Shown piece by piece: positions 4,898 through 26,876 of a stretch of 64,000 nucleotides of DNA (the stretch's first letter is position 1; the number at the start of each line of letters is the position of its first letter). The position numbers were made by a program, and so were the translations under genes. This stretch comes from Salinispira sp. (GTDB taxonomy: Bacteria; Spirochaetota; Spirochaetia; DSM-27196; Salinispiraceae): the NCBI GenBank assembly GCA_965226555.1, contig CBDDDG010000002.1:97298-161297 (forward strand). The letters run 5' to 3'. Under the pieces are notes generated by a model. That model ran no database searches. It had not been told where the DNA came from and was given only the letters and a program-made list of their open reading frames with translations.

Positions 4898-6034
4898 ATG
4901 GCAGTTGAGAATGGGTTGATTGGCGATATTAGGGGAATTATCTCGCAAGCTCGCTCGTTGACTCGCCGGAGTATTGATTCTCTGCAGGTTGTTTCCAACT
5001 ATTTAATTGGTCGGAGGATTGTTGAAGAAGAACAAGACGGGAAAGAGCGGGCGGAATATGGTAAAGAAACGCTGAAATTTTTGTCTGCGAAACTGACGTG
5101 GGAGTTTGGTAAAGGATATTCTCTTAGCAACCTCAAATATATGCGAAAGTTTTACCTGACATATATGCCGGGCATTGAAGAAAAAATTTCTCCAATGCCT
5201 CTCATTTCTGCTGATAAACAAAAAAGGCAAACATTGTCTGCCCTTTTTGTGGACGGAATTGCGCGCGCAGAATCTGATACACTAAATCTGCTTGAAATTG
5301 GCCAAACACTGTCTGGCTTTTTGCCCTTGAGTTGGTCGCATTATCTTTTTCTCATGAGCATTTCACATAATGATGAGCGCCGTTTTTACGAAATTGAATC
5401 GGAAAACGAGCATTGGTCTCTTCGCGAGCTGAAAAGGCAATTCAATACCAGTCTGTATGAGCGATTAGCGATCAGCGCGGACAAGGCGGGGGTGAAAAAG
5501 CTCTCCGAGCGCGGGCAAGTAATTGAGTCTCATTCCGATGTCATTAAAGATCCGCTGGTGCTGGAGTTTCTTGGTCTGGAGGAAGATCACCGGTATTCTG
5601 AAACAGATTTGGAAACCGCAATTATCAATAAATTAGAGCATTTTATTTTAGAGCTGGGCAAGGGGTTTTTATTTGAAGCGCGGCAAAAACGCATTTCCTT
5701 CGATGAAGATCATTTTTTTGTTGACCTCGTTTTTTATAACCGCCTGCTGCGCTGTTATGTCATTATCGATCTGAAAATAGGTGAGCTCAAGCATCAGGAT
5801 CTCGGACAAATGCAGATGTATGTCAACTATTTTGATCGCTATGTGAAATTAGAAGATGAGCAGCCGACAATCGGCATTATACTCTGCAAAAAGAAAAAAG
5901 ATTCGCTGGTAGAAATTACCCTCCCCAAAAACGCCAACATTCATGCCGCCAAATACCAGACCTACCTGCCCGACAAAGAATTGCTGAAAAAGCAATTGGA
6001 CGAGGCTCAGGTAGAGTGGGAAGCGCGGCAATGA
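4898..6034 (+). CDS. YhcG/DUF1016 PD-(D/E)XK nuclease-domain protein
   Basis: IGRRIVEEEQ.G..RAEYG; LSWSHY; KDPLVLEFL; ELGKGF; VDLVFYNRLLRCYVIIDLK; DLGQMQMYVNY. Confidence 0.9.
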   Translation: MAVENGLIGDIRGIISQARSLTRRSIDSLQVVSNYLIGRRIVEEEQDGKERAEYGKETLKFLSAKLTWEFGKGYSLSNLKYMRKFYLTYMPGIEEKISPMPLISADKQKRQTLSALFVDGIARAESDTLNLLEIGQTLSGFLPLSWSHYLFLMSISHNDERRFYEIESENEHWSLRELKRQFNTSLYERLAISADKAGVKKLSERGQVIESHSDVIKDPLVLEFLGLEEDHRYSETDLETAIINKLEHFILELGKGFLFEARQKRISFDEDHFFVDLVFYNRLLRCYVIIDLKIGELKHQDLGQMQMYVNYFDRYVKLEDEQPTIGIILCKKKKDSLVEITLPKNANIHAAKYQTYLPDKELLKKQLDEAQVEWEARQ

Positions 6035-9792: not shown

Positions 9793-10827
9793 ATGAAAAA
9801 AAATTTTGTACTTATAAGTATAGTATCTATTGTAGTAGTAGTAATACTACTTGCAGTAATACTTACTGGTAATCAGGAAGCAGCTCAGGATACGGCTGTG
9901 GAAGACGATTATACACTGGTGCTCAAGTTGAGCCATGTGTTTAGTCCCGATGAACAACTTACCAAGTCCATGGATTTGGTTGCAGGGAGAATTCTGGAGA
10001 GAACTGGCGGCGCCATTGAAATTCAGACCTTCCCGCAGGCGCAGCTTCCAACCTATAAGGAGGGAGTGGAGCAGGTTGTTCGGGGGGCAGATTTTATTTC
10101 TGTGGAAGATCCTTCGTTCATTGGCGATTATGTTGCGGATTTCAAAGCGCTCTACGCGCCGATGCTCTACCGTAGTTTCGATGAATATGTGAATCTTACC
10201 CAAATGCCGATTGTGCAGGATATGATTGATCAGGCTGCCGAGCAGGGAATTAAAATTCTTGCCCTCGACTACATCTATGGATTCCGTAATCTCATAACAC
10301 GCGAGGTCATACGGACTCCGGCAGATTTGGACGGCCTGAAAATTCGGACACCCGGCTCCAAGTCCTATATTGACACGCTTACTGCAATGGGAGCAATTGC
10401 CACACCGCTTCCCTTCGGGGAAACTTTGGCGGCAGTGCAGCAGGGGGTAGTGGACGGACTGGAAGGTTCTGAATTTACCAACATTGGTACCAAAGTGTAT
10501 GAGGGGCCGGCGAAGAATGTTGCCACCACTCGCCACATACTGGGTACTGCGGGGGTGTATATATCGACAGATGTCTGGAATCGCATTCCGGCAGAGTATC
10601 AGCAAATAATTCAGGAAGAATTCACTAAGGGAGCTGCTGAAATGATATCGATCCTGAAATCGCAGCACGCTGGTGTTGTGCAAGAGCTTGAATCTTACGG
10701 GGTAGTGTTTAACGATGTTGATGGAGACGCCTTCCGTGAGGCAATGCAGCCGCTCTACACAGAACAGCCCGGTATGACTGCGGGCGTTTTTGATTCCATT
10801 TTTGCTGCGCTTGACGGCATGCGGTAA
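9793..10827 (+). CDS. dctP: TRAP transporter substrate-binding protein (DctP family)
   Basis: LKLSHV, YGFRNL, DLDGLKIRTP, QQGVVDGLE. Confidence 0.9.
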   Translation: MKKNFVLISIVSIVVVVILLAVILTGNQEAAQDTAVEDDYTLVLKLSHVFSPDEQLTKSMDLVAGRILERTGGAIEIQTFPQAQLPTYKEGVEQVVRGADFISVEDPSFIGDYVADFKALYAPMLYRSFDEYVNLTQMPIVQDMIDQAAEQGIKILALDYIYGFRNLITREVIRTPADLDGLKIRTPGSKSYIDTLTAMGAIATPLPFGETLAAVQQGVVDGLEGSEFTNIGTKVYEGPAKNVATTRHILGTAGVYISTDVWNRIPAEYQQIIQEEFTKGAAEMISILKSQHAGVVQELESYGVVFNDVDGDAFREAMQPLYTEQPGMTAGVFDSIFAALDGMR

Positions 10828-12765: not shown

Positions 12766-13683
12766 ATGCTGATAATCGGACACAGGGGCTGTTATGACGA
12801 GGGGTATAATCAGAATACCATTCGGGCCATGCGCCATGTAATTGATCGGGGGGCGAGGGCGATTGAATTTGATGTTCAACGGACATCGGATAATGCGCTT
12901 GTTATTGTGCACGATCTCAATCTTGCCAAAGTATCCACCGGCAGCGGGCTGGTGGCAGAAAGGCCCTTGTCTGAAATTCGGGGGCTTCTGGCGGGCGACC
13001 CGAAGCGGGGGCAGGATCGCATTCCCACGCTGGAGGAGGTTTTCGGGCTGGCGGCTGAATATGCTGCGGAGAATAGGCCGAGGCTGCATGTTGAGCTCAA
13101 GGGACAGGGAACCGGCGCGCTCGCAGGGAAGTTTATTCGACAGGAGATAGACAGTGCTCGTCTGAGTTCCTTCCTTGTGAGTTCTTTTCTGTGGGATGAG
13201 GTAGATGTATTCCGGATGCATTGCCCCGAGGTGGATATTGCTTTGCTGGCCGGGGCGCTGAATCGTGAACGTCTGCTGGCGGAACAGGAGGGAATTGGGG
13301 CATGGCTGCCGAAGTTTTTTGCATATCCCGAGGAAAAATTCATGCTGCCGCTAACTGCCAATGCGGAAAAGCTGGAGGCTCTGCTGGCCGGGCATGACTG
13401 CCCTGCTGCCTTTGCTGAGGTCATTAGACGAGAGAACGCCCATGCCTGCAGCGGATCCTCCTATGACCGGCAGCTCGTTGAAGAGGCGGTAAGGCGGGGG
13501 GCGGTGTCTATCAATCTCTGGCATGTGTCGGTGAATAAGGCCATTGTCGATATGGCTCATGCGGCCGGTCTGAAGGTTCTCGCCTATACGGTCAATACTT
13601 TTTCGGATGCCCGGAGGCTTGAGGCGATAGCTGTCGATGGCATTTTCAGCGATCATTACCCGGCAATGCGAGAATTTCTATGA
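12766..13683 (+). CDS. Glycerophosphodiester phosphodiesterase
   Basis: IIGHRG, NT, IEFDVQRTSD, HD, RIPTLEEV, ELK, YTVN, VDGIFSD. Confidence 0.9.
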   Translation: MLIIGHRGCYDEGYNQNTIRAMRHVIDRGARAIEFDVQRTSDNALVIVHDLNLAKVSTGSGLVAERPLSEIRGLLAGDPKRGQDRIPTLEEVFGLAAEYAAENRPRLHVELKGQGTGALAGKFIRQEIDSARLSSFLVSSFLWDEVDVFRMHCPEVDIALLAGALNRERLLAEQEGIGAWLPKFFAYPEEKFMLPLTANAEKLEALLAGHDCPAAFAEVIRRENAHACSGSSYDRQLVEEAVRRGAVSINLWHVSVNKAIVDMAHAAGLKVLAYTVNTFSDARRLEAIAVDGIFSDHYPAMREFL

Positions 13684-15916
13684 GTGTTTCAAAATTACCC
13701 CGACATTTCTCTCGCGCATTTTCTAATTCTCCAAACGAAACCCCCAGTTTAAACCTGCGTTGGTTCCCATGTCCGCGGTACTTGGGTTTTTCAAAAATTT
13801 TTTGTTTCAGAAGAATAGGTTCTAAAACGTCTTTCTCAAAATTTGGCCATTCATTGCCGAGCTTTGTTTTCAAAATATATTCATTTAGCCCTGTTGACCT
13901 CTGGAAAGCCCGTATAATTTTAAAGAGCTGAGTAATTTTGGGGTCTTCAGTAGGTTTTTCTTTTGTAGGAACGTTCCCAGTTTTTTCATTCATTGGAAAC
14001 CCTGTCGTAACTCCATGATCTATAAGAATTGATATAATGGAGCTTCGGTCGTACATTATCTCATCCTGATCATTTCCAATAATTAATTTCTGCGGAATGC
14101 TGAAGTCGTCATTAATGGTCAGTTTCAAATTGCTTCTCTCTTGAGGACTTATAACCGCTTCGCATAACTCACTCGAAGAAAAAGACACATTTTCCAGATA
14201 TTCATTGAATTCCACTCTTTCAATAAAACAGTTTTTAAACTCAATATTGGAGATAGGTACATGCGATAGAGTTTCACCAGAGCAGTACAGCCCATCGATA
14301 GTGAATTTGTTATTATTATTGCGAAGTAAGCGAATAAGCATTGAACAAATATTCTGACTAATGCATGAATGCGTCTCAACAGATTCAGATAGCCTCTGAA
14401 GTGCCGCAATGGCATCCACTTTCTGAGGTTCATATTCTACGTTTATTACATGGCAACATTCATCAATGGTAAAAAGAGGAAGAACTTTTCTGTTTAAAAT
14501 TTTTCTGATATTCAGCTCGGAACCTGTCGCAATTGTTTTCGCAATGAATCTACCGAGAAAGTGAAAATAAAATTCATCATGGCAAAATCCATACCTGCCA
14601 TCTGCGCCTAAGGTAATGAGAACATGACTCCCTATGAGATTGACACATTGGGTAATTATAGTTGGAGAAAATTTAAGCGATTCACAGTAAAGCTTTGTCA
14701 ACGCAATTAAAATATCTTGTTTAATGTTCGTGGAATTTATTATCCATAATTCTTCAGCGAGTGATGTCAACAGTTCTTGGTGTTGTTCAAAGGTTAAAAG
14801 AGATTCTGACATACTTTCTTTTGGCACCCATTTTTGTGTTTCTCGTTGGAGTATCATTGTAACAAATTCTAAAAATACCTCGCGTTTATTTTTAAAACGA
14901 TCAACGACTGACTGGATATTGCTTCCTAAATCTTCAGATATTTCCTCTACTAATTTTCTGGCTAGAACCGCCCTCGTTAAAATCGGATGATCTGAAACAA
15001 GGGAGTCAGAAAGAGCCTCATAGTATTCTTCAGCCTCTTTTGTATTGAATTCAAATTTTTCCAAAAGAAATACGAGTTGGGTTTTCGTCCACTTGCTTAA
15101 AAATATTTCAGAAAAAGTAACATCCTTCGTCCGACTAAAACTATCGAGGAATTTCGCCCGCAATTTGAGGTTTGCATAATTATAGTACGCTTTTCGTGCG
15201 GCAAACACCATTGTTCCATTAGAATCCAAGGAATCAAGTAAATTACCCAAAGACGACACCGCATCGCCTTCCATACCCTCAATGGTCATTTCTTCAAATC
15301 CATCCAAACCAAGAACAATTAGACCCTGTTTTACAAGTTCCAGAAAACTTTCAATGTAATAGCTCCTGAACCGATAAAGGTTTGCCAAAGTGCCAATGAT
15401 AATTTCATCAAGCCGAAGAAATGGCCTGCCGGAAAGGGCTATTGGAACAAACAGCCAATCCGATTTATCTGCCTTAAATAAAGATGCTTGTGTTCGCGCC
15501 AGCGCATTCATTACACTTGTTTTTCCCTCTCCCCCTTCCGATGTCAGATAAATTACATTTGTTGAAAAATATTTTGATGACTGTTTTATTTTTTCCTGTA
15601 AAAAACAAACAGCGTCATCATTGCTTTTTTGTTTACCATTCTCTTTTGCGGGAACGGGTATGATGTGCAGATCATTGGGTGTTTTTTCTAATATGGCTGT
15701 TGCTAAAGTGTCCAAGCGTCCAAGTCGTTTTGATATCCATTTTCTGACAGGCATATCATAGCCATTCTCAACACATCGCAGACCTTCATTGGTTTTTTTC
15801 AGCTCTACGCATATATTTGCACCATCAATATCAAATGATACACCGCGATTATCAGCAATAACATATGAATTATCAGCAAATACCGTAACTATGTCAATAA
15901 ATTTTTTTTTGTCCAT
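13646..15916 (-). CDS. NACHT/STAND-like P-loop NTPase
   Basis: Walker A SEGGEGKT, Walker B LVLGLDGFEEM, sensor FAAR, YGFCHDEFYFHFLG (wHTH F.H..F..YF-like motif). Confidence 0.75.
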   Translation of the reverse strand: MDKKKFIDIVTVFADNSYVIADNRGVSFDIDGANICVELKKTNEGLRCVENGYDMPVRKWISKRLGRLDTLATAILEKTPNDLHIIPVPAKENGKQKSNDDAVCFLQEKIKQSSKYFSTNVIYLTSEGGEGKTSVMNALARTQASLFKADKSDWLFVPIALSGRPFLRLDEIIIGTLANLYRFRSYYIESFLELVKQGLIVLGLDGFEEMTIEGMEGDAVSSLGNLLDSLDSNGTMVFAARKAYYNYANLKLRAKFLDSFSRTKDVTFSEIFLSKWTKTQLVFLLEKFEFNTKEAEEYYEALSDSLVSDHPILTRAVLARKLVEEISEDLGSNIQSVVDRFKNKREVFLEFVTMILQRETQKWVPKESMSESLLTFEQHQELLTSLAEELWIINSTNIKQDILIALTKLYCESLKFSPTIITQCVNLIGSHVLITLGADGRYGFCHDEFYFHFLGRFIAKTIATGSELNIRKILNRKVLPLFTIDECCHVINVEYEPQKVDAIAALQRLSESVETHSCISQNICSMLIRLLRNNNNKFTIDGLYCSGETLSHVPISNIEFKNCFIERVEFNEYLENVSFSSSELCEAVISPQERSNLKLTINDDFSIPQKLIIGNDQDEIMYDRSSIISILIDHGVTTGFPMNEKTGNVPTKEKPTEDPKITQLFKIIRAFQRSTGLNEYILKTKLGNEWPNFEKDVLEPILLKQKIFEKPKYRGHGNQRRFKLGVSFGELENAREKCRGNFETLIEILALPGNDR

Positions 15917-16824
15917 TCCATCTACCCCTTAAAAAGTCAATTCTGTATATGTTTCCCTCGGAGCAATACCTCGATAATAATTATGCGTTCTGTCATGAGC
16001 TTTTGCATTGATATGAATTATACTCTTTCCCCGAGAAGCTGTCTGAAACATGGCAGGAATAAAATCATCATCGCTGCTTACAATGGCTATTTCCGAATAT
16101 TGATCTGTCATTGCAAAATGGGCAATATCCATGGAAAGCATAACATCAACCAGTTTTTGTTCATCGTACCAAACTAGTTCAGATGATGGTCGTTTATGAT
16201 CACAACGCCTGCAAACTCCTTTTGTCTGTAATTCTTTCAAATATTCTATGGCTCCCTGCGATGCTTCACAGCACGCATTGGTAATTTTGCACATTCTTAA
16301 ATGACTAAGTCTTTTTCGTCTTCGAAAAGTATGAAGTAAATCAAAAGTTGGTCGAGATGCCTGAGCTTTGGCCAATTCGACGAGAATTATGCGTTGTAAT
16401 TTTTCGTTTTCACTGGGATACTCCCTATCAATGATTCTGGCAATGTCCTGCGCCTTCTTTGTCAGGATACTTTCTTCATACCAGCCATCATAAAGTCGAA
16501 AATGAAGTCTGGATCGTTCAGCCCATTCATCTTGATTTTTCTTTTGTAAATGTGAAGTAATTTTTTCAGCAATGTGATCTATTACAGATGTTAGATCATC
16601 AGTATTAGTGATGTATAAATTGGCATAATCTACCAGCACAATTATGTTCTTCATTATTTCCACAAGCACAATACAGTGTACCAAATTATGATCGCATCAA
16701 CAAGCGTTTGATGACTTCGCGGACATTATTCCCCAGATAGAAATTGATGCCTTCATGATATATAATGGCTTCTAATTTCGGTAGGATGTTGATAATTCTG
16801 TTCCGATCATTACCCGGCAATGCG
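13650..16824. mobile_element. AT-rich integrated cassette bounded by a 21-bp direct repeat (att-like)
   Basis: CGATCATTACCCGGCAATGCG at 13650-13670 and 16804-16824; composition shifts to AT-rich between them. Confidence 0.8.
15929..16654 (-). CDS. NYN (PIN-like) ribonuclease-domain protein with Cys-rich insert
   Basis: VLVDYANL, RLYDGW, EQKLVDVML, IVSSDDDFIP. Confidence 0.8.
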   Translation of the reverse strand: MKNIIVLVDYANLYITNTDDLTSVIDHIAEKITSHLQKKNQDEWAERSRLHFRLYDGWYEESILTKKAQDIARIIDREYPSENEKLQRIILVELAKAQASRPTFDLLHTFRRRKRLSHLRMCKITNACCEASQGAIEYLKELQTKGVCRRCDHKRPSSELVWYDEQKLVDVMLSMDIAHFAMTDQYSEIAIVSSDDDFIPAMFQTASRGKSIIHINAKAHDRTHNYYRGIAPRETYTELTF

Positions 16825-16843
16825 GGATTTCATGCTATAACTA

Positions 16844-16902
16844 TAACAAAGTTTTGCATTGGAAAATTGTGCTTGCACAATTTCCAGTAGCAAAAGTTTC
16901 TA
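16844..16902. repeat. TA-flanked nested-hairpin dispersed repeat
   Basis: TAACAAAGTTTTGC-ATTGGAAAATTGTGC-TT-GCACAATTTCCAGTA-GCAAAAGTTTCTA. Confidence 0.8.
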
Positions 16903-19120: not shown

Positions 19121-19250
19121 TAGAAACTTTTGCATTGGAAAATTGCGCTTGCGCAATTTCCAGTAGCAAAAGTTTCCGATCTGGAATGCTTTCTTTGTGC
19201 TTAGCATTCTCCTATTTTATAGAAAGTTTTGCATTTTGCAAAACTTTCTA
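19121..19250. repeat. Two copies of the dispersed hairpin family (nested 19121-19176; minimal 19220-19250)
   Basis: TAGAAAGTTTTGC-ATTTT-GCAAAACTTTCTA is a perfect palindrome around a 5-nt loop. Confidence 0.8.
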
Positions 19251-20101: not shown

Positions 20102-20458
20102 TTAATGCGATCCGTTCCGCACTGTCCGCATTTCCTCATCGCTCAGCCCGGTAATTCTCTGAACAGCCTCGGTCGACAACCCTTCCAAAAACATACTGCG
20201 GGCGTTTTTTCTCCGCTCCTCAATATGCCCCTCCGCGCGACCTGTCTGTAGTCCTTCCTGCCGACCTGTTTGCAATCCTGTCTGTAGGCCTTCCTGCCGA
20301 CCTTCTTCACGGCCTTCCTGCCGACCTGTTTGCAATCCTTCCTGCCGACCTGTCTGAAGTCCTGTCTGCAATCCTTCTTCACGACCTGTCCGCAGTCCTT
20401 CCTGCCGACCCATTTCCGCAATGTGCGCTCTGAATGTTTCCGCATTCATTCTGAACAT
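20102..20458 (-). CDS. Putative nested small Rpn protein (Rpn-S), copy A
   Basis: In-frame TAAGGAGGT-AGCGAAA-ATG inside the gene. Confidence 0.65.
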   Translation of the reverse strand: MFRMNAETFRAHIAEMGRQEGLRTGREEGLQTGLQTGRQEGLQTGRQEGREEGRQEGLQTGLQTGRQEGLQTGRAEGHIEERRKNARSMFLEGLSTEAVQRITGLSDEEMRTVRNGSH

Positions 20459-21226
20459 TTTCGCTACCTCCTTACCTCTCGGTTCTTTTGTTCTTTCTAA
20501 CTGGTTCATTAACGTGTCAAAGTCTATAACAATTCCGAACATTGAATCTACCACGCCGACAAATTCCTCTATCAGCTCCAGCGATTCTTCATTCAGCATT
20601 TCTGCTATCGCGTTCTCCACCTTCCGAATGTCCCAATCCGTATTCAGCAGATTTTTCGAGTACAGATCAAGGTACATAACAGCCGCAAACATTCTTCCCC
20701 GCTGCTGCAACTGCTCCGCAGAATAATCGTTCTCACTTATCAGATCGTAGGGAAAGGGGGCAAGATACTGCGGGAATTCCCGCTTCCGTTGCTCTCTGAC
20801 ATTCCCGGGCACCTTCCATTTTCTCGTACCATTATAGAATACAATGGGCAGAAATACCAACTCGCAGTCATCGGGAATTGCGCCGGAGCGGTGAATGTTC
20901 CGATAGAGCAGATTCGTATATTCCGACATGCGGAGGGGCATGTCTTTGTCCACTCCGGACTGATGCTCAAGGAGCACATAGATAGCAACATCTCCCGTGT
21001 GATCCCGACTCCTGATTTTGCAGACAATGTCGGCCATCCGTGTTTTTGCATGGTCAATGAAAAAGGTACCGTTTTCAATGGTTATGTCCTCGGTTCGCAA
21101 TTTTTTCGTCCATGCGCCTCCGACAAAGCGTTGAAGAAATTGGAGCATTATTGCGGGTTGGAACAGCAGGGAGCGGTAGCCTTGGTCGTAGGGAACGGGG
21201 GCGGGTTTTTCTTTGAAATCGATCAT
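20102..21226 (-). CDS. Rpn/YhgA-family PD-(D/E)XK nuclease (copy A)
   Basis: YDQGYRSL, MADIV, LLEHQS, MPLRM, PIVFYNG..KW, C-terminal G(R/L)(Q/E)(E/T) tetrapeptide repeats; AGGAGG SD before ATG 21226. Confidence 0.88.
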   Translation of the reverse strand: MIDFKEKPAPVPYDQGYRSLLFQPAIMLQFLQRFVGGAWTKKLRTEDITIENGTFFIDHAKTRMADIVCKIRSRDHTGDVAIYVLLEHQSGVDKDMPLRMSEYTNLLYRNIHRSGAIPDDCELVFLPIVFYNGTRKWKVPGNVREQRKREFPQYLAPFPYDLISENDYSAEQLQQRGRMFAAVMYLDLYSKNLLNTDWDIRKVENAIAEMLNEESLELIEEFVGVVDSMFGIVIDFDTLMNQLERTKEPRGKEVAKMFRMNAETFRAHIAEMGRQEGLRTGREEGLQTGLQTGRQEGLQTGRQEGREEGRQEGLQTGLQTGRQEGLQTGRAEGHIEERRKNARSMFLEGLSTEAVQRITGLSDEEMRTVRNGSH

Positions 21227-21502
21227 ATAATCCTCCTGAACGTTTCTTTCTGAATAGGGGAGCTCCCATGGCGACATGGTCCCATGGTGAATTCTCCCCT
21301 CTATATATGTGACGGGTAAAAAGTCATTTTTGATTGTGTTTTTTGAAAGAATTTTGCAAAATTTGTGAATTTTTTTCAGGGAGTCGGGAATGGGGGGCTG
21401 GTATGCTCTGTATCGATACGATCTATGCTCCCGGGAACAATGCTCAGCGCGAGGTTTTTGTAAAAAGTTTCTATTATTTTGAGATATTGACCTAACCCCG
21501 CC

Positions 21503-21620
21503 GCTTGGGCGAGCCGGATGCTTGGGCGAGCAGGCGTGCAACGCCGATCAACCCAGGAGGTGCAAGCCTCCGACCAGCCCGGCTGCATGGCGAGCAGCGC
21601 GGAAGCGCGACCAGCCCCCG
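21503..21620. repeat. GC-rich ~38-bp repeat cluster (REP/BIME-like)
   Basis: Variants of CCGGACGCATGGCGAGCAGGCGTGCAACGCCGACCAGC. Confidence 0.7.
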
Positions 21621-21679: not shown

Positions 21680-23220
21680 CTAATACCATGACGGAAAATT
21701 TGGTTGCACCCCATCAGTCATGGTATCCGTATCCACAGCAGCCAGGCCGGAACCCGTAAACATACCGTTTTTGGTTCCAGTGTATTTGCCATTGTCATTG
21801 AGCTTGTTGCCAGTTTCGGGCGTCCAATGTGCTTTCCACTCCTCAAGATCACCGGTAAATGCGCGTGCAAAATAGAACATAGAGCCCATAGTCGTTACCG
21901 AACTGACATCCCAACCGGAAATGTTGCCATTGAATGCGTTTGCGTTAGAGAACATAAAGCGCATATCCGTTACCGCGCTGACATTCCAACCCGAGATATT
22001 GCCATTGAATGCGCTTGCGCTATTGAACATATTGGACATATTCGTTACCGTGCTGACATCCCAACTGGAAATGTCGCCATTGAATGCAGTTTTATCCTTG
22101 AACATCTCGGACATGTCCGTTACTGCCGTGGTAACAATGTAGTTGAGATTGGCAGTATTGCCCCAAGTATCTATCCCTTCAGTTACCGCTGTTTTCAGTT
22201 CATCATTATCTTGAGGACTCAGGGTAACAGAGAACTTTTCGGTGGCAAACAGTTCGATTCCTCCGTCTGCGCCCGATACCTCATATGTTCCGGGGCTTGT
22301 ATGTGCGGTAACCATAATAATTCCGGTAGTTTCATCAACTGTCGGGAGGGCGACATCTGCGGGTGTCGTTGGGGTGGTGACCGCAGCCAAAGTAACGGTT
22401 GGATTATTCGCATTGATAATTGCGTCATCAATATCATCCGAAAGAATGACGGATACTGCCGTACCCGCGGGAACCTCTGTCGCAACAGTCGGCAGTATTG
22501 CTGTTGCGGGTTCAGACCATGAACCACCGTAAATGCCGTTGACCGCACGCACCTGCACATCGTAGCTGGCGCCGTTTGTCAGCCCCATAATGGTATCGGT
22601 GGTGGTATCGGCATCAGTTGTCCGCTGAGTAACAGCGGGAGCATCCGTCCAGAGATCAGAGGTCAGCTTATACTCCAGTTCATATCCGGTAATGTCGCTG
22701 CCTTCATTGTATGGAGCTGTCCATTTCACCGTCAGACGACCATTACCGAGTATAACCAGTATTGCAGGAGCGGCAGCAGTTATGACCAGTTCACCTGTTG
22801 CGGATTCAGACCAGGGGCCATTGCCAATGTCATTGACAGCACGTACCTGTACGCGGTAACTGATTTTTTTGTGTGTTAGTGGGGTTATGGTGTAGCTGGT
22901 GTGTGTTCCGATGTCGGAGATAATTTCCGTCCATGTGGTTCCGCCGTCTGAGCTATGGCGCAGATGATAGGCGGTAATTTCGCCATCGCCGCTTTTTTCC
23001 GGCGGAATCCAGCTAACCGTTAGTTGATCATTCCCCGCTACAAGGGTTGGAGCAGCCATGGTGCCCGGCGTCATTGGTTCCGGTTCCGTCATTGGATCGG
23101 GTTTTGGCGTTGGATCGGGGTCCATGTCCATCACTGGACATCCGGCAAGCAGCGCAATGAACATTGCGCATAATAGGAAGAGGGTTACCCCCCCTTTTTT
23201 TTCAATAACGTAGTTCGCAT
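21680..23220 (-). CDS. FN3 x2 + DUF285/BspA-repeat surface lipoprotein; signal peptide out of frame at an A8G7 tract
   Basis: GAGGT SD + ATG 23220; lipobox LLAGC; FN3 YxVxVRAVN; FNGDISxWDVS repeats. One extra base at 23188-23202 joins the start to the ORF. Confidence 0.8.
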
Positions 23221-23408
23221 AATTTTATACCTCTTTTTTATGCTATAATAGAAAGTTTTGCATTTTGCAAAATTTTTTAATAGTTTTCATCGGCATTTCC
23301 GACTGTTCCTGCGCCTATCGGTACAATATATCAGTTCGAAAAGCCGTATTATAAGTTATATCACATTGGGAAAGCACAATCAAGAAAAAAAGCAGTCCAC
23401 GGATTTTC

Positions 23409-23530
23409 CCGGACGCATGGCGAGCAGGCGTGCAACGCCGACCAGCCCGGACGCATGGCGAGCAGGCGTGCAACGCCGACCAGCCCGGACGCATGGGCGA
23501 GCAGGCGCGCAGCGCCGACCAGCCCCCCGC
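23409..23530. repeat. 38-bp GC-rich tandem repeat x3
   Basis: Units start at 23409, 23447 and 23485. Confidence 0.85.
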
Positions 23531-23587
23531 GCCTGCCTGAGTTGAATTGCCGCTTCTCAATAGTTACTGCGGGCTATAAAACTGCTC

Positions 23588-23833
23588 CTAATATGCTAAT
23601 GACCATGACGGCTTATTATTGTACACGCCGGAATTCCAAAACGTAAGGAGTTGGGCTCCGGTGTATTTGCCATCATCGAGCGTCAAATGATACTTCCATT
23701 CCTCAAGGTCTCTATTGAATGCTCTTGCGTTAAAGAACATATAGTTCATATTCGTTACCACGCTGACATCCCAACCGGAAATATCGCCATTGAATACGAT
23801 TGCTCCATAGAACATATAGAATATATATTGCAT
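23588..23833 (-). pseudogene. Orphan C-terminal cassette of the DUF285 lipoprotein family
   Basis: FNGDISGWDVS...DLEEW...GKYTG...PSW followed by the family's conserved 3' element; no signal peptide or FN3. Confidence 0.75.
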
Positions 23834-23897
23834 AATACCGCAGAAGGCAGGATGCGGCGCACGTATGGTTGAATTCGCCTACACACTTTATTTAAAA

Positions 23898-23926
23898 TTG
23901 ACATTTCCCCCTAAATGCGTTATCCT
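23898..23926 (+). promoter_or_regulatory. sigma70-type promoter of the 944-aa lipoprotein gene
   Basis: TTGACA-17 nt-TATCCT; TAAGGAG SD before ATG 24042. Confidence 0.7.
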
Positions 23927-24041
23927 GTATTACAGGGACTTTCTGAAACTGTTATACTACCCGTTGTTACACGATGGGTGGGAGCAGTCGGGAATTAAAT
24001 TACCTGAGAAAAAATACTATTTAAGCATAAGGAGTTAAATT

Positions 24042-26876
24042 ATGCATATTACATTACCTAAAGGGAACACCTTTTTCGTATTCTGCGCAATTTTTATTAT
24101 ATTGATTGCTGGATGTCCAACACCGGTAGATATTGCAACCCCGCCGGGTACCATGGTTGCTCCAACCCTCACAGCAGGGAACGGGCAATTAACGGTTGCA
24201 TGGACTGAGCCAACTGATGGCGGCAGCGCCATTACCGCGTATCACCTTCGCCATAGCGCGGACGGCGGTACCAACTGGTCGGACATTATTAATGTCGCCG
24301 CTTCAGCCACAAGCAGCATCATCCCTGAACTGAGCAACGGTACCCCGTACAGTGTACAGGTTCGTGCCGTAAACGCGCGGGGAGAAGGCAAATGGTCGGA
24401 ATCGAGCGCAGAAGCAGTTCCTGTTGCTGTTCCCATGGCGCCGACTGGTCTCGCTCTCACAGTGGGAAATGGAAAACTTACCGCAACATGGGCGGAATTA
24501 GAGCCGACCGACACTGGCGGCAGCCCTATCCTTCATTATGCAGTGGAACACCGCGAACCAGAAGCCGAGTGGCCGCAAACTCCCAGTGCATCCACCGCCG
24601 ATGCCGGCACCCTGACCCTCGACATCCCCAACCTGAAAAACGGCACCGAGTACGAAGTACGGGTATACGCTGTCAATGATCAGGGAGATGGAAACCGATC
24701 AGAAATTGCAGCGGCAACCCCTGCCACCGTTCCTGATAAGCCGAACGCTCCAACCCTCACAGCGAGAAATGAGCAACTTACCGCAACATGGACTGCGCCG
24801 GACAATGGCGGAAACGCTATTATTCGGTATGAAGTGCAGTATCGCACCTCCAGCCCGCAAGGACAGTGGACGACTTCTTCGTCTGCCGATTCTGATGTTA
24901 CTGATACAAGCCACACCGTCACAGGACTAACAAACGGTACCACGTACGAAGTACAGGTGCGCGCCGTGAATTCGGTGGCTGAGGATGCGGGAAATGGCCC
25001 GGGAGTTGGCGCATGGTCAACATCATCTGCCTCCGCAACCCCTGTTGACGTTCCCAAGGCGCCGACTGGTCTCGCTCTCACAGTGGGAAATGGGAAGCTT
25101 ACTGCATCATGGACTGCGCCGACCGACACTGGCGGCAGCGACATTACCGGGTATGCAGTGCAATATCGCACAGGCGGCGGAGCATGGTCTGCGCCAATTA
25201 GCGCTGGTACAAGCACAAACCACGAAATCCCCAACCTGAAAAACGGCACCGAGTACGAAGTACGGGTATACGCTGTCAATGATCAGGGAGATGGAAACCG
25301 ATCAGAAATTGCCGCGGCAACCCCTGCCACCGTTCCTGCTAAGCCGAACGCTCCAACCCTCACAGTAGGAGATAGGCAACTTACCGCAACATGGACTGCG
25401 CCGGACAATGGCGGAAACGCTATTATTCGGTATGAAGTGCAGTATCGCACCTCCAGCCCGCAAGGACAGTGGACGACTTCTTCGTCTGCCGATTCTGATG
25501 TTACTGATACAAGCCACACCGTCACAGGACTAACAAACGGTACCACGTACGAAGTACAGGTGCGCGCCGTGAATTCAGTGGCTGAGGATGCGGGAGTTGG
25601 CGCATGGTCAACATCTGCGACAGAAACCCCCGATGTTGCTCCCACTGCGCCGACCGCTCTCACGCTTGACGTAGGGAATAAGCGGCTTGTCGTTAACTGG
25701 GCTGCGCCGAGCGACAACGGAGGTACGCCCATTATCAGGTATGAACTGGAATATAAGCTGATCTCTGGCAGCTGGGATACTTCTAACGATGTTACTCAGC
25801 CTGTAATTGTCGCTGGTACCACCACACATACCATTGATATGCTGACGAACGGCAACACCTACAATGTACGGGTTCGTGCCGTCAACGGAGTCAATAATGT
25901 GATCAACGAGGGCGTCTGGTTAACGTCAACAGCAATGCTGCCGGCTTCGGTTGTTGATGCGAAAGCGGGAAGTTCTCGGGATGAGGCAGACGTTTCCCAG
26001 GGTACGGCAGCGTCCGTTATCCTTTCGGCTAATATTGATGTCCTTATTGCCGATGCTGTGAATCCAACCATTACCTTAACTCCGGTAACCACCCCAATCC
26101 CATATGTGCCACCTACGCCCGGCGTGCCCAACTCGGGCTCGACGAATAATGTAACGCAAGATGCCACCCTGCCGACGGTTAATGCGCGTACCGGACTTAT
26201 TACGGTTACCGCAAGTACAACGGCAGGAACCTATACAGTATCTGGTGAAGACGGAAGCGGAGCCGAGGTGTTTCCCACCAAGTATTTCTATGTTATCGTG
26301 AGTCCCTCAACTAAAGCTGCCCTTGACACAGCGGTACGTACGGGAATAGAAATCTGGGGCAATGCTGCCGATCTCAACTACATTATTACCACGGGAGTAA
26401 CGGATATTCATTCGATTTTCAATCGCGGAACCAAAACAACGGGGGGTGGAGTTGCCACAACGGCATTCAATGGCGATATCTCCAAATGGGATACTACATC
26501 GGTTACGAATATGTCCTATTTGTTCAAGGCCGCAATCGCATTCAATGGCGATATCTCGGGCTGGGATGTCAGTTCGGTAGAGAATATGGACAGTATGTTC
26601 AATGGTGCAAACGCATTCAATGGCGATATCTCTGGGTGGGATGTCAGTTCGGTTGCGAATATGAGCAATATGTTCAATTCTGCACTCTCATTTAAGGGTA
26701 ATCTTAACGACTGGGCCTATAATAACTCGGTTGACCCTGCAGTTACATGGAAGACTACTGATGGTGGTGGTAAATGGGATAATGGCACATATACCGGAAC
26801 CAAAACAGGTATGTTTACGTTTACTGGTACTAGTACCGCCGTACCGGGAACCTTTACGATTCCGACATGGTATTAG
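24042..26876 (+). CDS. Multi-FN3 + DUF285/BspA-repeat surface lipoprotein
   Basis: Lipobox LIAGC; six FN3-like repeats with YxVxV(R/Y)AVN; FNGDISGWDVS repeats; ends in PTWY. Confidence 0.85.
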   Translation: MHITLPKGNTFFVFCAIFIILIAGCPTPVDIATPPGTMVAPTLTAGNGQLTVAWTEPTDGGSAITAYHLRHSADGGTNWSDIINVAASATSSIIPELSNGTPYSVQVRAVNARGEGKWSESSAEAVPVAVPMAPTGLALTVGNGKLTATWAELEPTDTGGSPILHYAVEHREPEAEWPQTPSASTADAGTLTLDIPNLKNGTEYEVRVYAVNDQGDGNRSEIAAATPATVPDKPNAPTLTARNEQLTATWTAPDNGGNAIIRYEVQYRTSSPQGQWTTSSSADSDVTDTSHTVTGLTNGTTYEVQVRAVNSVAEDAGNGPGVGAWSTSSASATPVDVPKAPTGLALTVGNGKLTASWTAPTDTGGSDITGYAVQYRTGGGAWSAPISAGTSTNHEIPNLKNGTEYEVRVYAVNDQGDGNRSEIAAATPATVPAKPNAPTLTVGDRQLTATWTAPDNGGNAIIRYEVQYRTSSPQGQWTTSSSADSDVTDTSHTVTGLTNGTTYEVQVRAVNSVAEDAGVGAWSTSATETPDVAPTAPTALTLDVGNKRLVVNWAAPSDNGGTPIIRYELEYKLISGSWDTSNDVTQPVIVAGTTTHTIDMLTNGNTYNVRVRAVNGVNNVINEGVWLTSTAMLPASVVDAKAGSSRDEADVSQGTAASVILSANIDVLIADAVNPTITLTPVTTPIPYVPPTPGVPNSGSTNNVTQDATLPTVNARTGLITVTASTTAGTYTVSGEDGSGAEVFPTKYFYVIVSPSTKAALDTAVRTGIEIWGNAADLNYIITTGVTDIHSIFNRGTKTTGGGVATTAFNGDISKWDTTSVTNMSYLFKAAIAFNGDISGWDVSSVENMDSMFNGANAFNGDISGWDVSSVANMSNMFNSALSFKGNLNDWAYNNSVDPAVTWKTTDGGGKWDNGTYTGTKTGMFTFTGTSTAVPGTFTIPTWY
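24625..25595 (+). repeat. Near-identical intragenic duplication (~370 bp, offset 603 bp)
   Basis: ATCCCCAACCTGAAAAACGGCACC...GAGGATGCGGGA at ~24625 and ~25228. Confidence 0.85.

Follow-up and report, generated by a model that had tools for sequence, protein, structure and literature searches.

Does a bacterial NLR-like sensor that carries no recognisable effector of its own signal in trans to a nuclease encoded beside it? The question is raised by a two-gene cassette in 64,000 nucleotides of a Salinispira sp. genome (assembly GCA_965226555.1, contig CBDDDG010000002.1, positions 97,298 to 161,297; hereafter the window), in which a predicted ribonuclease of the NYN family and a putative NACHT-type STAND NTPase are encoded at the 3' end of a GDPD gene. 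In most of the bacterial NLR-like proteins tested so far, effector and sensor are parts of a single polypeptide; a sensor with no fused enzyme, but accompanied almost without exception by an intact nuclease gene, would permit a direct test of signalling in trans. An original prediction, made from the sequence of the window, had proposed a two-component anti-phage system that is mobilised in trans. We find that the pair is a real, strongly conserved two-gene module, apparently unnamed, and consider here what it may do and how it may have reached its present site.

A conserved two-gene module

A profile of 99 NTPase homologues, searched against GTDB contigs representing one genome per species, returned 158 relatives, of which the best 80 were analysed; these span at least 18 phyla. 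An NYN gene lies directly upstream of the NTPase on the same strand in 77 of the 80 loci, with gaps mostly between -4 and +16 nt. The three exceptions are an assembly break (L048, where a different contig ends in NYN and the beginning of the NTPase), a genome with NYN elsewhere and no NTPase within 1.5 kb of that NYN (L058), and a broken NTPase in a genome with no NYN of the family (L034). The linkage is reciprocal: when an NYN profile was searched over 752 genomes, 401 of them sampled around a member from Acidobacteriota and 351 around one from Bacteroidota, the NTPase was found directly downstream of all 14 matches, four of which come from genomes already represented and five from a more distant clade. 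Five distant-clade pairs (L132-L135, L141) keep four or five cysteines. Five contigs from viral collections carry the NTPase, and all four that extend upstream of it also carry NYN.

The two genes also share much of their history. Among 69 pairs in which both genes were sufficiently intact (12 of the 80 loci being left out and the window added), 29 of 42 supported splits in the NTPase tree recur in the NYN tree, and the patristic distances of the two trees are correlated (Mantel rho 0.55) to a degree reached in 0 of 999 shuffles. The tree (FastTree, unrooted) requires 23 changes of phylum label where 15 would be the minimum and includes clades that cross phyla, which suggests transfer between phyla. 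The proposed unit of STAND/NACHT protein and stand-alone NYN is thus borne out by linkage in both directions and by largely matching trees.

At E <1e-30 the wider NTPase family comprises 678 clusters (50% identity). The presence of the pair is patchy, with 7/400, 5/350 and 0/400 sampled genomes positive in three phyla when the genomes at the centre of each sample are left out. There is no third conserved gene, the only recurrent neighbours being ABC transporters, type I restriction-modification (RM) genes and shadow open reading frames (ORFs). One locus, L003, contains a second, sister NYN + STAND pair (L003:12812-15773, minus strand) 2.5 kb from the first and in the same gene order, with an NTPase 19% identical over its length and an NYN lacking the cysteine insert. 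One NYN of the family, from an uncultured Alistipes (P0119 cluster), was found on 303 contigs, and the pair may be common in gut Bacteroidota.

In 66 of the 80 loci the GC content of the pair is lower than that of its flanks by more than 3 points, and in no locus is it higher by as much. First and second neighbours were called by a longest-ORF heuristic (291 ORFs), and some 159 of them, chosen by hand, were scanned with Pfam or PADLOC. At least 24 of the 80 loci have a neighbour of a defence family: RM, BREX, Gabija, GmrSD or Thoeris-type genes in 19 (L004, 007, 008, 009, 014, 016, 024, 025, 030, 039, 040, 041, 050, 061, 062, 064, 068, 069 and 071) and candidate-type defence genes in five (L006, 020, 042, 057 and 080). 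The chance that a non-defence gene lies within 5 kb of a defence system is given as 1.53% in the main text of Lee et al. 2026 (PMC13581612), and binomial values against that background overstate the enrichment, since our counts are of single-gene matches in related genomes and are not like for like. Nineteen of 80 exceeds even a 10% background (p 3e-4, binomial; single-gene matches, heuristic calls and related genomes as before).

The two proteins and their nearest known counterparts

The NTPase has a conserved N-terminal domain of ~90 residues, a Walker A motif GEGGEGKT (K132), a Walker B motif DGFEE (205-209), R241, a probable winged-helix histidine (H446), a short pentapeptide-repeat segment (~540-615) and a conserved C-terminal domain (~655-750). 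In the paired alignment K132, D205, E208, E209, R241 and H446 are invariant (69/69), as are G129 and G131, and the Walker B motif reads DG[FY]EE in all 69; in the sister clade in L003 it is DGFDE. Kibby et al. (bioRxiv 10.1101/2022.07.19.500537) define the NACHT Walker B in the preprint text as D[GAS]hDE, that is, a small residue after the aspartate and then two acidic residues, so that DG[FY]EE fits the verbal definition and not the literal DE.

The window NTPase has no Pfam match at all, PF05729 (NACHT) included. Over 65 members of the family, at E up to 0.05, the matches are all weak: Pentapeptide_4 in 48, nSTAND5 in 28 and NACHT in 21, the last with a best E of 7e-5. Residues ~540-615 match solved pentapeptide proteins in the PDB (E 1e-9). 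The invariant F-x-H446 aligns with FFHKSF of NLRC4, the H443/S445 site, in a weak match (E 0.18), and on this alignment H446 is likely the equivalent of NLRC4 H443. In the Atlas the sequence falls among NACHT clusters by its features, and the model of a relative, P0309, aligns to NACHT clusters at TM scores of 0.47-0.71, those for Pfam-NACHT clusters being 0.47-0.63, with predicted models on both sides; our statements on fold rest on profiles and on this one model. We file the NTPase as a divergent NACHT-type STAND protein that would work like a bNACHT, and claim no clade membership for it. The NACHT label of the original prediction rests on evidence at the level of the family, the window protein itself having no Pfam match.

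Within the N-terminal domain W60, R64, L71 and A72 are invariant, and the domain is conserved in the sister clade too; it matches no Pfam family and no solved structure. A lead from the Atlas model, that it is an inactive restriction endonuclease, found no Pfam match, and PF22723 was present in 0/50 genomes and 0 controls. The fused N-terminal effector of the tripartite bNACHT/Avs architecture was not found in the NTPase, and no enzymatic effector was recognised in it, as had been noted at first. No fused NYN-NTPase form occurred among 7,689 longer candidates, which is weak evidence.

The NYN protein matches Pfam PF01936 (E 1e-9, 39.5 bits against a cut-off of 24.2) and has the D..N motif near the N-terminus, QKxVD and SxDxD, with its acidic active-site residues D9, D170, D195 and D197 intact. 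D9, N12, Q166, K167, D170, D176, D195 and D197 are invariant in an alignment of 69 NYN homologues; across the paired loci D170, D176 and D195 are found in 69/69, D197 in 68 and D9 in 65. From what is known of the family it is predicted to be an RNase, DNase or mixed activity also being possible. The CC...CxxC insert noted in the original prediction is present at ~122-151 (C122, C128, C129, C148 and C151), and its form in the window, C-x5-CC...CxxC, which is common to the nearest relative, is a local variant of a family-wide Cys4 motif with four conserved cysteine columns that is probably zinc-binding. The same genome encodes a second, unrelated NYN of LabA/DUF88 type (G000:C21:98238-98960, minus strand), with neither cysteine insert nor NTPase partner.

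Four groups of known systems bear comparison, in each case as described in the accessible text of the papers cited. bNACHT proteins are anti-phage, and include forms with pentapeptide sensors and forms without effectors (Kibby et al.). With them (Kibby et al.; PMC12169576) the NTPase shares a central STAND NTPase, an intact Walker A, a small and then two acidic residues after the Walker B aspartate, a probable winged-helix histidine, C-terminal pentapeptide repeats (a listed sensor type), a sporadic distribution and neighbours in defence islands. It is unlike them in reading DGFEE rather than DGhDE, in having neither a fused enzymatic effector nor a recognised adaptor, and in the unfused NYN that nearly always lies upstream, whereas bNACHT01 is a single gene and the effectors listed there include no NYN or PIN; it is not SNaCT clade 14, having a longer C-terminus with pentapeptide repeats. 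The likeness to Avs1-24 (Lee et al.) lies in the STAND NTPase, in a C-terminal region long enough for a sensor and in predicted ligand-triggered oligomerisation and cell death. In the Avs proteins that have been tested the effector is fused and the sensor is mostly of TPR, WD40 or FGE-sulfatase type, whereas the present family has a pentapeptide segment and a separate gene for the predicted RNase, and no PADLOC Avs model matches it.

DS-8 (NF053861) gives a weak match to residues 376-465, in the helical/winged-helix region, at 25 bits against a cut-off of 790, and is a single protein of ~994 residues with a metallophosphatase effector (PMC13092281). HEC-09 and the LabA/DUF88 NYN proteins have the fold and the conserved acidic residues of the active site in common with the window NYN, which gives a weak PADLOC match of 24 bits over residues 138-210. 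HEC-09, however, acts as one gene with no NTPase partner, and its N-terminal part resembles a helix-turn-helix (bioRxiv 10.1101/2024.01.29.577857), whereas the window NYN has a Cys4 insert and a nearly obligate STAND partner. Membership in DS-8, HEC-09 and Hailong was ruled out on score and architecture.

A proposed mechanism and its alternatives

The reading that we favour, though with no great margin of confidence, is that the NTPase is an NLR-like sensor which switches on the stand-alone NYN RNase in trans, by way of its N-terminal domain, in an abortive defence against phage; that the pair has some role in defence we regard as quite probable. By analogy with bNACHT and NLR biology, the NTPase would rest ADP-bound, held shut by H446. 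A phage protein or a disturbed host process would be read by the C-terminal half, with its helical, pentapeptide and terminal domains, and the triggered NTPase would oligomerise; STAND proteins typically activate effectors on oligomerisation, according to the accessible text of two papers (PMC13581612, PMC12169576). The ~90-residue N-terminal domain, which lies at the usual place of fused effectors, would then recruit and activate NYN, and NYN would cut cellular or phage RNA. The Cys4 insert is probably a later addition, since it is absent from a sister clade. Horizontal transfer would have brought the pair into this genome, where its insertion at the 3' end of GDPD would have duplicated 21 bp.

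A more specific form of this proposal is a split bacterial inflammasome, in which a NACHT switch with a pentapeptide sensor recruits a zinc-finger NYN ribonuclease through a new adaptor of ~90 residues; we advance it tentatively. If true, this would be the first NLR shown to signal in trans to a PIN/NYN RNase, and would give bacteria of 18 phyla or more a parallel to NLR signalling in animals and to NYN-type antiviral RNases. It would be switchable without phage by one histidine substitution: bNACHTs are activated by H443-equivalent changes in the preprint text of Kibby et al., a His-to-Leu substitution having been made in bNACHT25 and bNACHT16, and the conserved, probably winged-helix histidine would offer a way to switch the system on without knowing the phage trigger. 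NYN RNases would be added to the list of effectors and a pentapeptide-type sensor to that of sensors. Seen in this way, the pair would be a variation on NLR-like defence, not something new in kind.

Several findings weigh against signalling in trans for defence. The Walker B motif DGFEE departs from the literal NACHT signature, a weak Pfam NACHT score is seen in only 21/65 members, and the NLRC4 winged-helix match is weak. The N-terminal domain could itself be the effector, and in one genome (G787) NTPase and NYN lie apart. Many copies, including that in the window, stand alone between housekeeping genes, and conservation in defence islands, which had been put forward as a check, is seen only in part, no defence neighbour having been found in up to 56 of the 80 loci. 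Single queries gave no match in E. coli genomes, plasmids or annotated phages. Finally, HEC-09, a candidate that consists of an NYN alone, did not protect against phage according to the preprint text of Payne et al. (bioRxiv 10.1101/2024.01.29.577857).

The alternative that survives best is a guard or toxin-antitoxin arrangement, in which NYN would be constitutively active and held by the resting NTPase until sensing releases it; this would still be defence, with the opposite logic. PIN-fold proteins are common toxins, and the near-obligate 1:1 linkage with translational coupling suits such an arrangement, as does the fact that in no case examined was NYN found without an NTPase in the same genome (adjacent in 14/14, elsewhere in G787). 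Intact NTPases beside broken NYN genes (L021, L073 and L100) do occur, but L072 shows the reverse, an intact NYN beside a truncated NTPase of which the N-terminal 556 residues remain (an assembly error is possible), and STAND proteins typically activate effectors on oligomerisation, in the two sources already cited. We think a guard unlikely.

A second alternative, somewhat less probable still, makes NYN the regulator: the NTPase would be a self-sufficient effector-less bNACHT, as in clade 14, which NYN limits, perhaps through cleavage of the operon mRNA as with LabA- or Regnase-type NYN proteins. Effector-less bNACHT01, 02 and 12 defend alone (Kibby et al.; PMC12169576) and HEC-09 as a solo NYN does not (Payne et al.), as far as the text of these sources goes; NYN is always the first gene of the operon, and intact NTPases persist beside broken NYN genes (L021, L073 and L138). 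This last observation cuts both ways, as restraint of a toxic NTPase should make loss of NYN intolerable. Close co-phylogeny fits protein contact better than a loose regulatory link, and the invariant residues of the N-terminal domain (W60, R64, L71 and A72) form no catalytic-looking set.

Thirdly, the pair may already have been catalogued or named, as one of the STAND clades (589) or sensor clusters (90) that Lee et al. distinguish, as a clade in the tables of Kibby et al. or in a recent DefenseFinder model; this we hold to be improbable. Those surveys cover 359,879 STAND representatives and ~20,000 bNACHTs by the text of the papers, and RefSeq members of the family exist, so that the NTPase is probably in their tables. 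Cultured, non-pathogenic carriers of the pair include Pseudomonas sp. GM41 (WP_008153665.1), Polaromonas sp. JS666 (WP_139200839.1) and Dyadobacter koreensis (WP_090336426.1). The main text of Lee et al. has no mention of NYN, PIN or pentapeptide, and the seven supplements that the search covered contain no NYN, LabA, DUF88 or any of six family accessions; the search of Kibby et al., which covered the preprint text, found no NYN. No model of PADLOC 2023 or NCBIfam (June 2026) comes near its cut-off: the window NTPase matches 0 PADLOC families, with three single weak matches among 65 members, and NCBIfam returns only DS8, HalA and Qnr pieces, all far below cut-off. In the literature searched, outside subscription journals and DefenseFinder, no description of an operon of NYN and NACHT/STAND was found, including in the accessible parts of PMC10853773, PMC8195603, PMC10910872, PMC3710099 and 10.64898/2026.10.19.760177. 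In vWA systems, which are a different setting, PIN and NACHT domains can share a polypeptide (PMC7159879, accessible text). The original prediction likewise recognised no named system.

Least probable is that the pair plays no part against phage and is a selfish or stress-signalling module, maintained through addiction or chance insertion. In favour of this, most loci have no detected defence neighbour, several sponge-type genomes keep the pair at syntenic housekeeping sites, and defence and non-defence STAND clades are interspersed according to the main text of Lee et al. Against it, patchy presence, low GC and cross-phylum transfer are the usual signature of defence genes, as are RM, BREX and Gabija neighbours at a frequency well in excess of the 1.5% that Lee et al. 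give as background, a comparison that is not like for like.

The insertion at the GDPD gene and its surroundings

Features of the cassette and its boundaries are given in Table 1. The original description of a minus-strand two-gene operon bracketed by a perfect 21-bp direct repeat was confirmed, as were its readings of the GDPD ends, DHYPAMREFL* at the left copy and DHYPAMRDFML* at the right (asterisk, stop codon).

Table 1. Coordinates of the gene pair, its boundaries and adjacent features, in positions of the window
Feature	Position	Strand	Basis
Divergent NACHT-type STAND NTPase (putative), 756 aa	13646..15916	-	ORF call, invariant columns, Pfam over members, PDB and NLRC4 matches, Atlas model of relative
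NYN (LabA/DUF88-type, PIN-like fold), 241 aa, predicted RNase	15929..16654	-	ORF call, PF01936, alignments
AT-rich leader, 149 bp, NYN start to right repeat	16655..16803	-	sequence
Host GDPD gene, 305 aa, insertion target, not part of the system	12766..13683	+	PF03009 E 8e-31
Left copy of exact 21-bp direct repeat, in GDPD 3' end	13650..13670	+	exact match
Right copy of exact 21-bp repeat, then in-frame RDFML*, stop 16835-16837	16804..16824	+	exact match
53-bp palindromic host repeat outside right boundary	16848..16900	.	genome-wide copies

The two genes are separated by 12 nt that are purine-rich on the coding strand. From its ATG the NYN protein has 241 residues, as has the orthologue in a second Salinispira metagenome-assembled genome; an upstream TTG at 16684 would give 251. 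A 7,244-bp contig of that second genome carries GDPD, NYN and NTPase, all at 95-99% identity. The pair is markedly AT-richer than its flanks, as first noted, with 37.3% GC in the NTPase and 37.1% in NYN against 55.2% in GDPD (left) and 47.2% in MgtC (right), and third-position GC is 0.32 and 0.28 in the two cassette genes against 0.50-0.65 in five flanking genes. This composition and the absence of the NYN family from 400 other genomes sampled from the host phylum support horizontal acquisition of the pair in this genome, in agreement with the original prediction.

Apart from these two copies, the 21-bp repeat does not recur exactly anywhere in the 2.98-Mb assembly. The assembly has 67 intervals of 0.8-30 kb that are flanked by a unique exact repeat of 18 bp or more; the cassette is the most AT-shifted of them (0.37 inside, 0.51 outside), and the set contains no genome-wide family of repeat-bounded cassettes at gene ends. 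The GDPD and NTPase genes overlap convergently by 38 nt at their ends. A point absent from the original prediction is that the left repeat, read on the minus strand, supplies the seven C-terminal residues of the NTPase, whose stop codon (13646-13648) lies beyond it in host sequence, there being none inside the cassette. The end of the foreign DNA thus falls within the variable tail of the NTPase gene (homologues end a median of 9 residues after F743, the window protein 13), which leaves no room for a terminator or attachment arm.

RDFML* is likely to be the original GDPD end, because the bases after the left repeat, read as REFL*, are antisense NTPase coding sequence. The displaced end proposed at first is thus supported by this argument, but not by an empty site. 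None of 30 relatives had the region (one 37-bp chance match), in metagenome contigs the 21-mer had no match and GDPD no relative, and contigs from four runs gave no joint skipping the cassette, so that no empty-site relative with GDPD ending in RDFML* was found. Two cave-metagenome strains carry the same left junction, and GDPD orthologues (45-46% identity; two of four readable) end unlike both REFL and RDFML and so favour neither as the original end.

Integrative islands at gene 3' ends duplicate an attL/attR core. The cassette resembles them in its short exact repeat duplicating a gene end, its foreign composition and its intact target gene, the GDPD frame remaining open to a new stop; it differs in that it lacks an integrase, that its cargo ORF uses a host stop, that its relatives rarely have repeats and that neither empty site nor circle was seen. 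No integrase ORF lies between the repeats, as predicted. The genome encodes two full-length tyrosine recombinases (PF00589) among housekeeping genes, which we take to be hslVU/dprA and ftsAZ, the recombinases hence being probably XerC/D; there is also one partial match, and no serine resolvase (PF00239) was found in the assembly, which is 93.5% complete. Folding at the 21-bp repeats is not significant (z 1.2 and -0.03), so that no hairpin or attachment arm is apparent, and the 21-mer's one inverted repeat (4 bp with a 7-bp spacer), judged by eye, is no more than chance would give.

A flanking exact repeat of at least 20 bp was found in only two of the 80 relatives, control windows reaching 18 bp: that of L012 (26 bp) is possibly a genomic repeat, and that of L067 is part of a partial gene duplication. 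The claim of mobilisation in trans is not supported, given the lack of an NTPase stop within the cassette, the rarity of repeats in relatives and the placement of the recombinases among housekeeping genes. Most likely the insertion was a one-off event at short homology, or is the relic of a larger element, rather than an element with its own attachment sites; an integrase-driven origin is possible. It is of local interest only.

Several sponge-type genomes carry the pair at syntenic housekeeping sites (L003/L013/L012; L063/L067/L073). In L067 it lies between a full NMT1/TAXI-family gene and its partial duplicate (L067:5879-6840 and 10388-10695; 212- and 108-bp pieces), and in its relatives L063 and L073 on the other side of the intact NMT1/TAXI-family gene.

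The leader contains a 39-codon open stretch (16689-16803, minus strand), in frame with the right repeat and ending 35 nt before the NYN ATG, for which there was no Pfam, plasmid or local match of note; it is possibly the tail of a donor gene. In a hypothetical circular cassette the NTPase frame would continue through this stretch, stopping 35 nt before the NYN start. Scans for promoters (14 against 11 expected) and terminators (2 against 2.2) were at background. The 53-bp palindromic repeat outside the right boundary occurs again at 19124-19176 and in ~366 copies over 23 contigs, and forms a strong hairpin (z -4.4); it is REP- or MITE-like, intergenic here, and marks the return to host DNA.

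Elsewhere in the window are a YhcG/DUF1016 PD-(D/E)XK nuclease gene (4898-6034, plus strand) and an Rpn/YhgA-like putative transposase with a 12-bp tandem repeat tail (20102-21541, minus strand). The region 21680-26876 encodes what we take, by eye, to be a predicted lipoprotein cluster with fibronectin-III-like and BspA/DUF285-like repeats, presumably of a type typical of host-associated bacteria.

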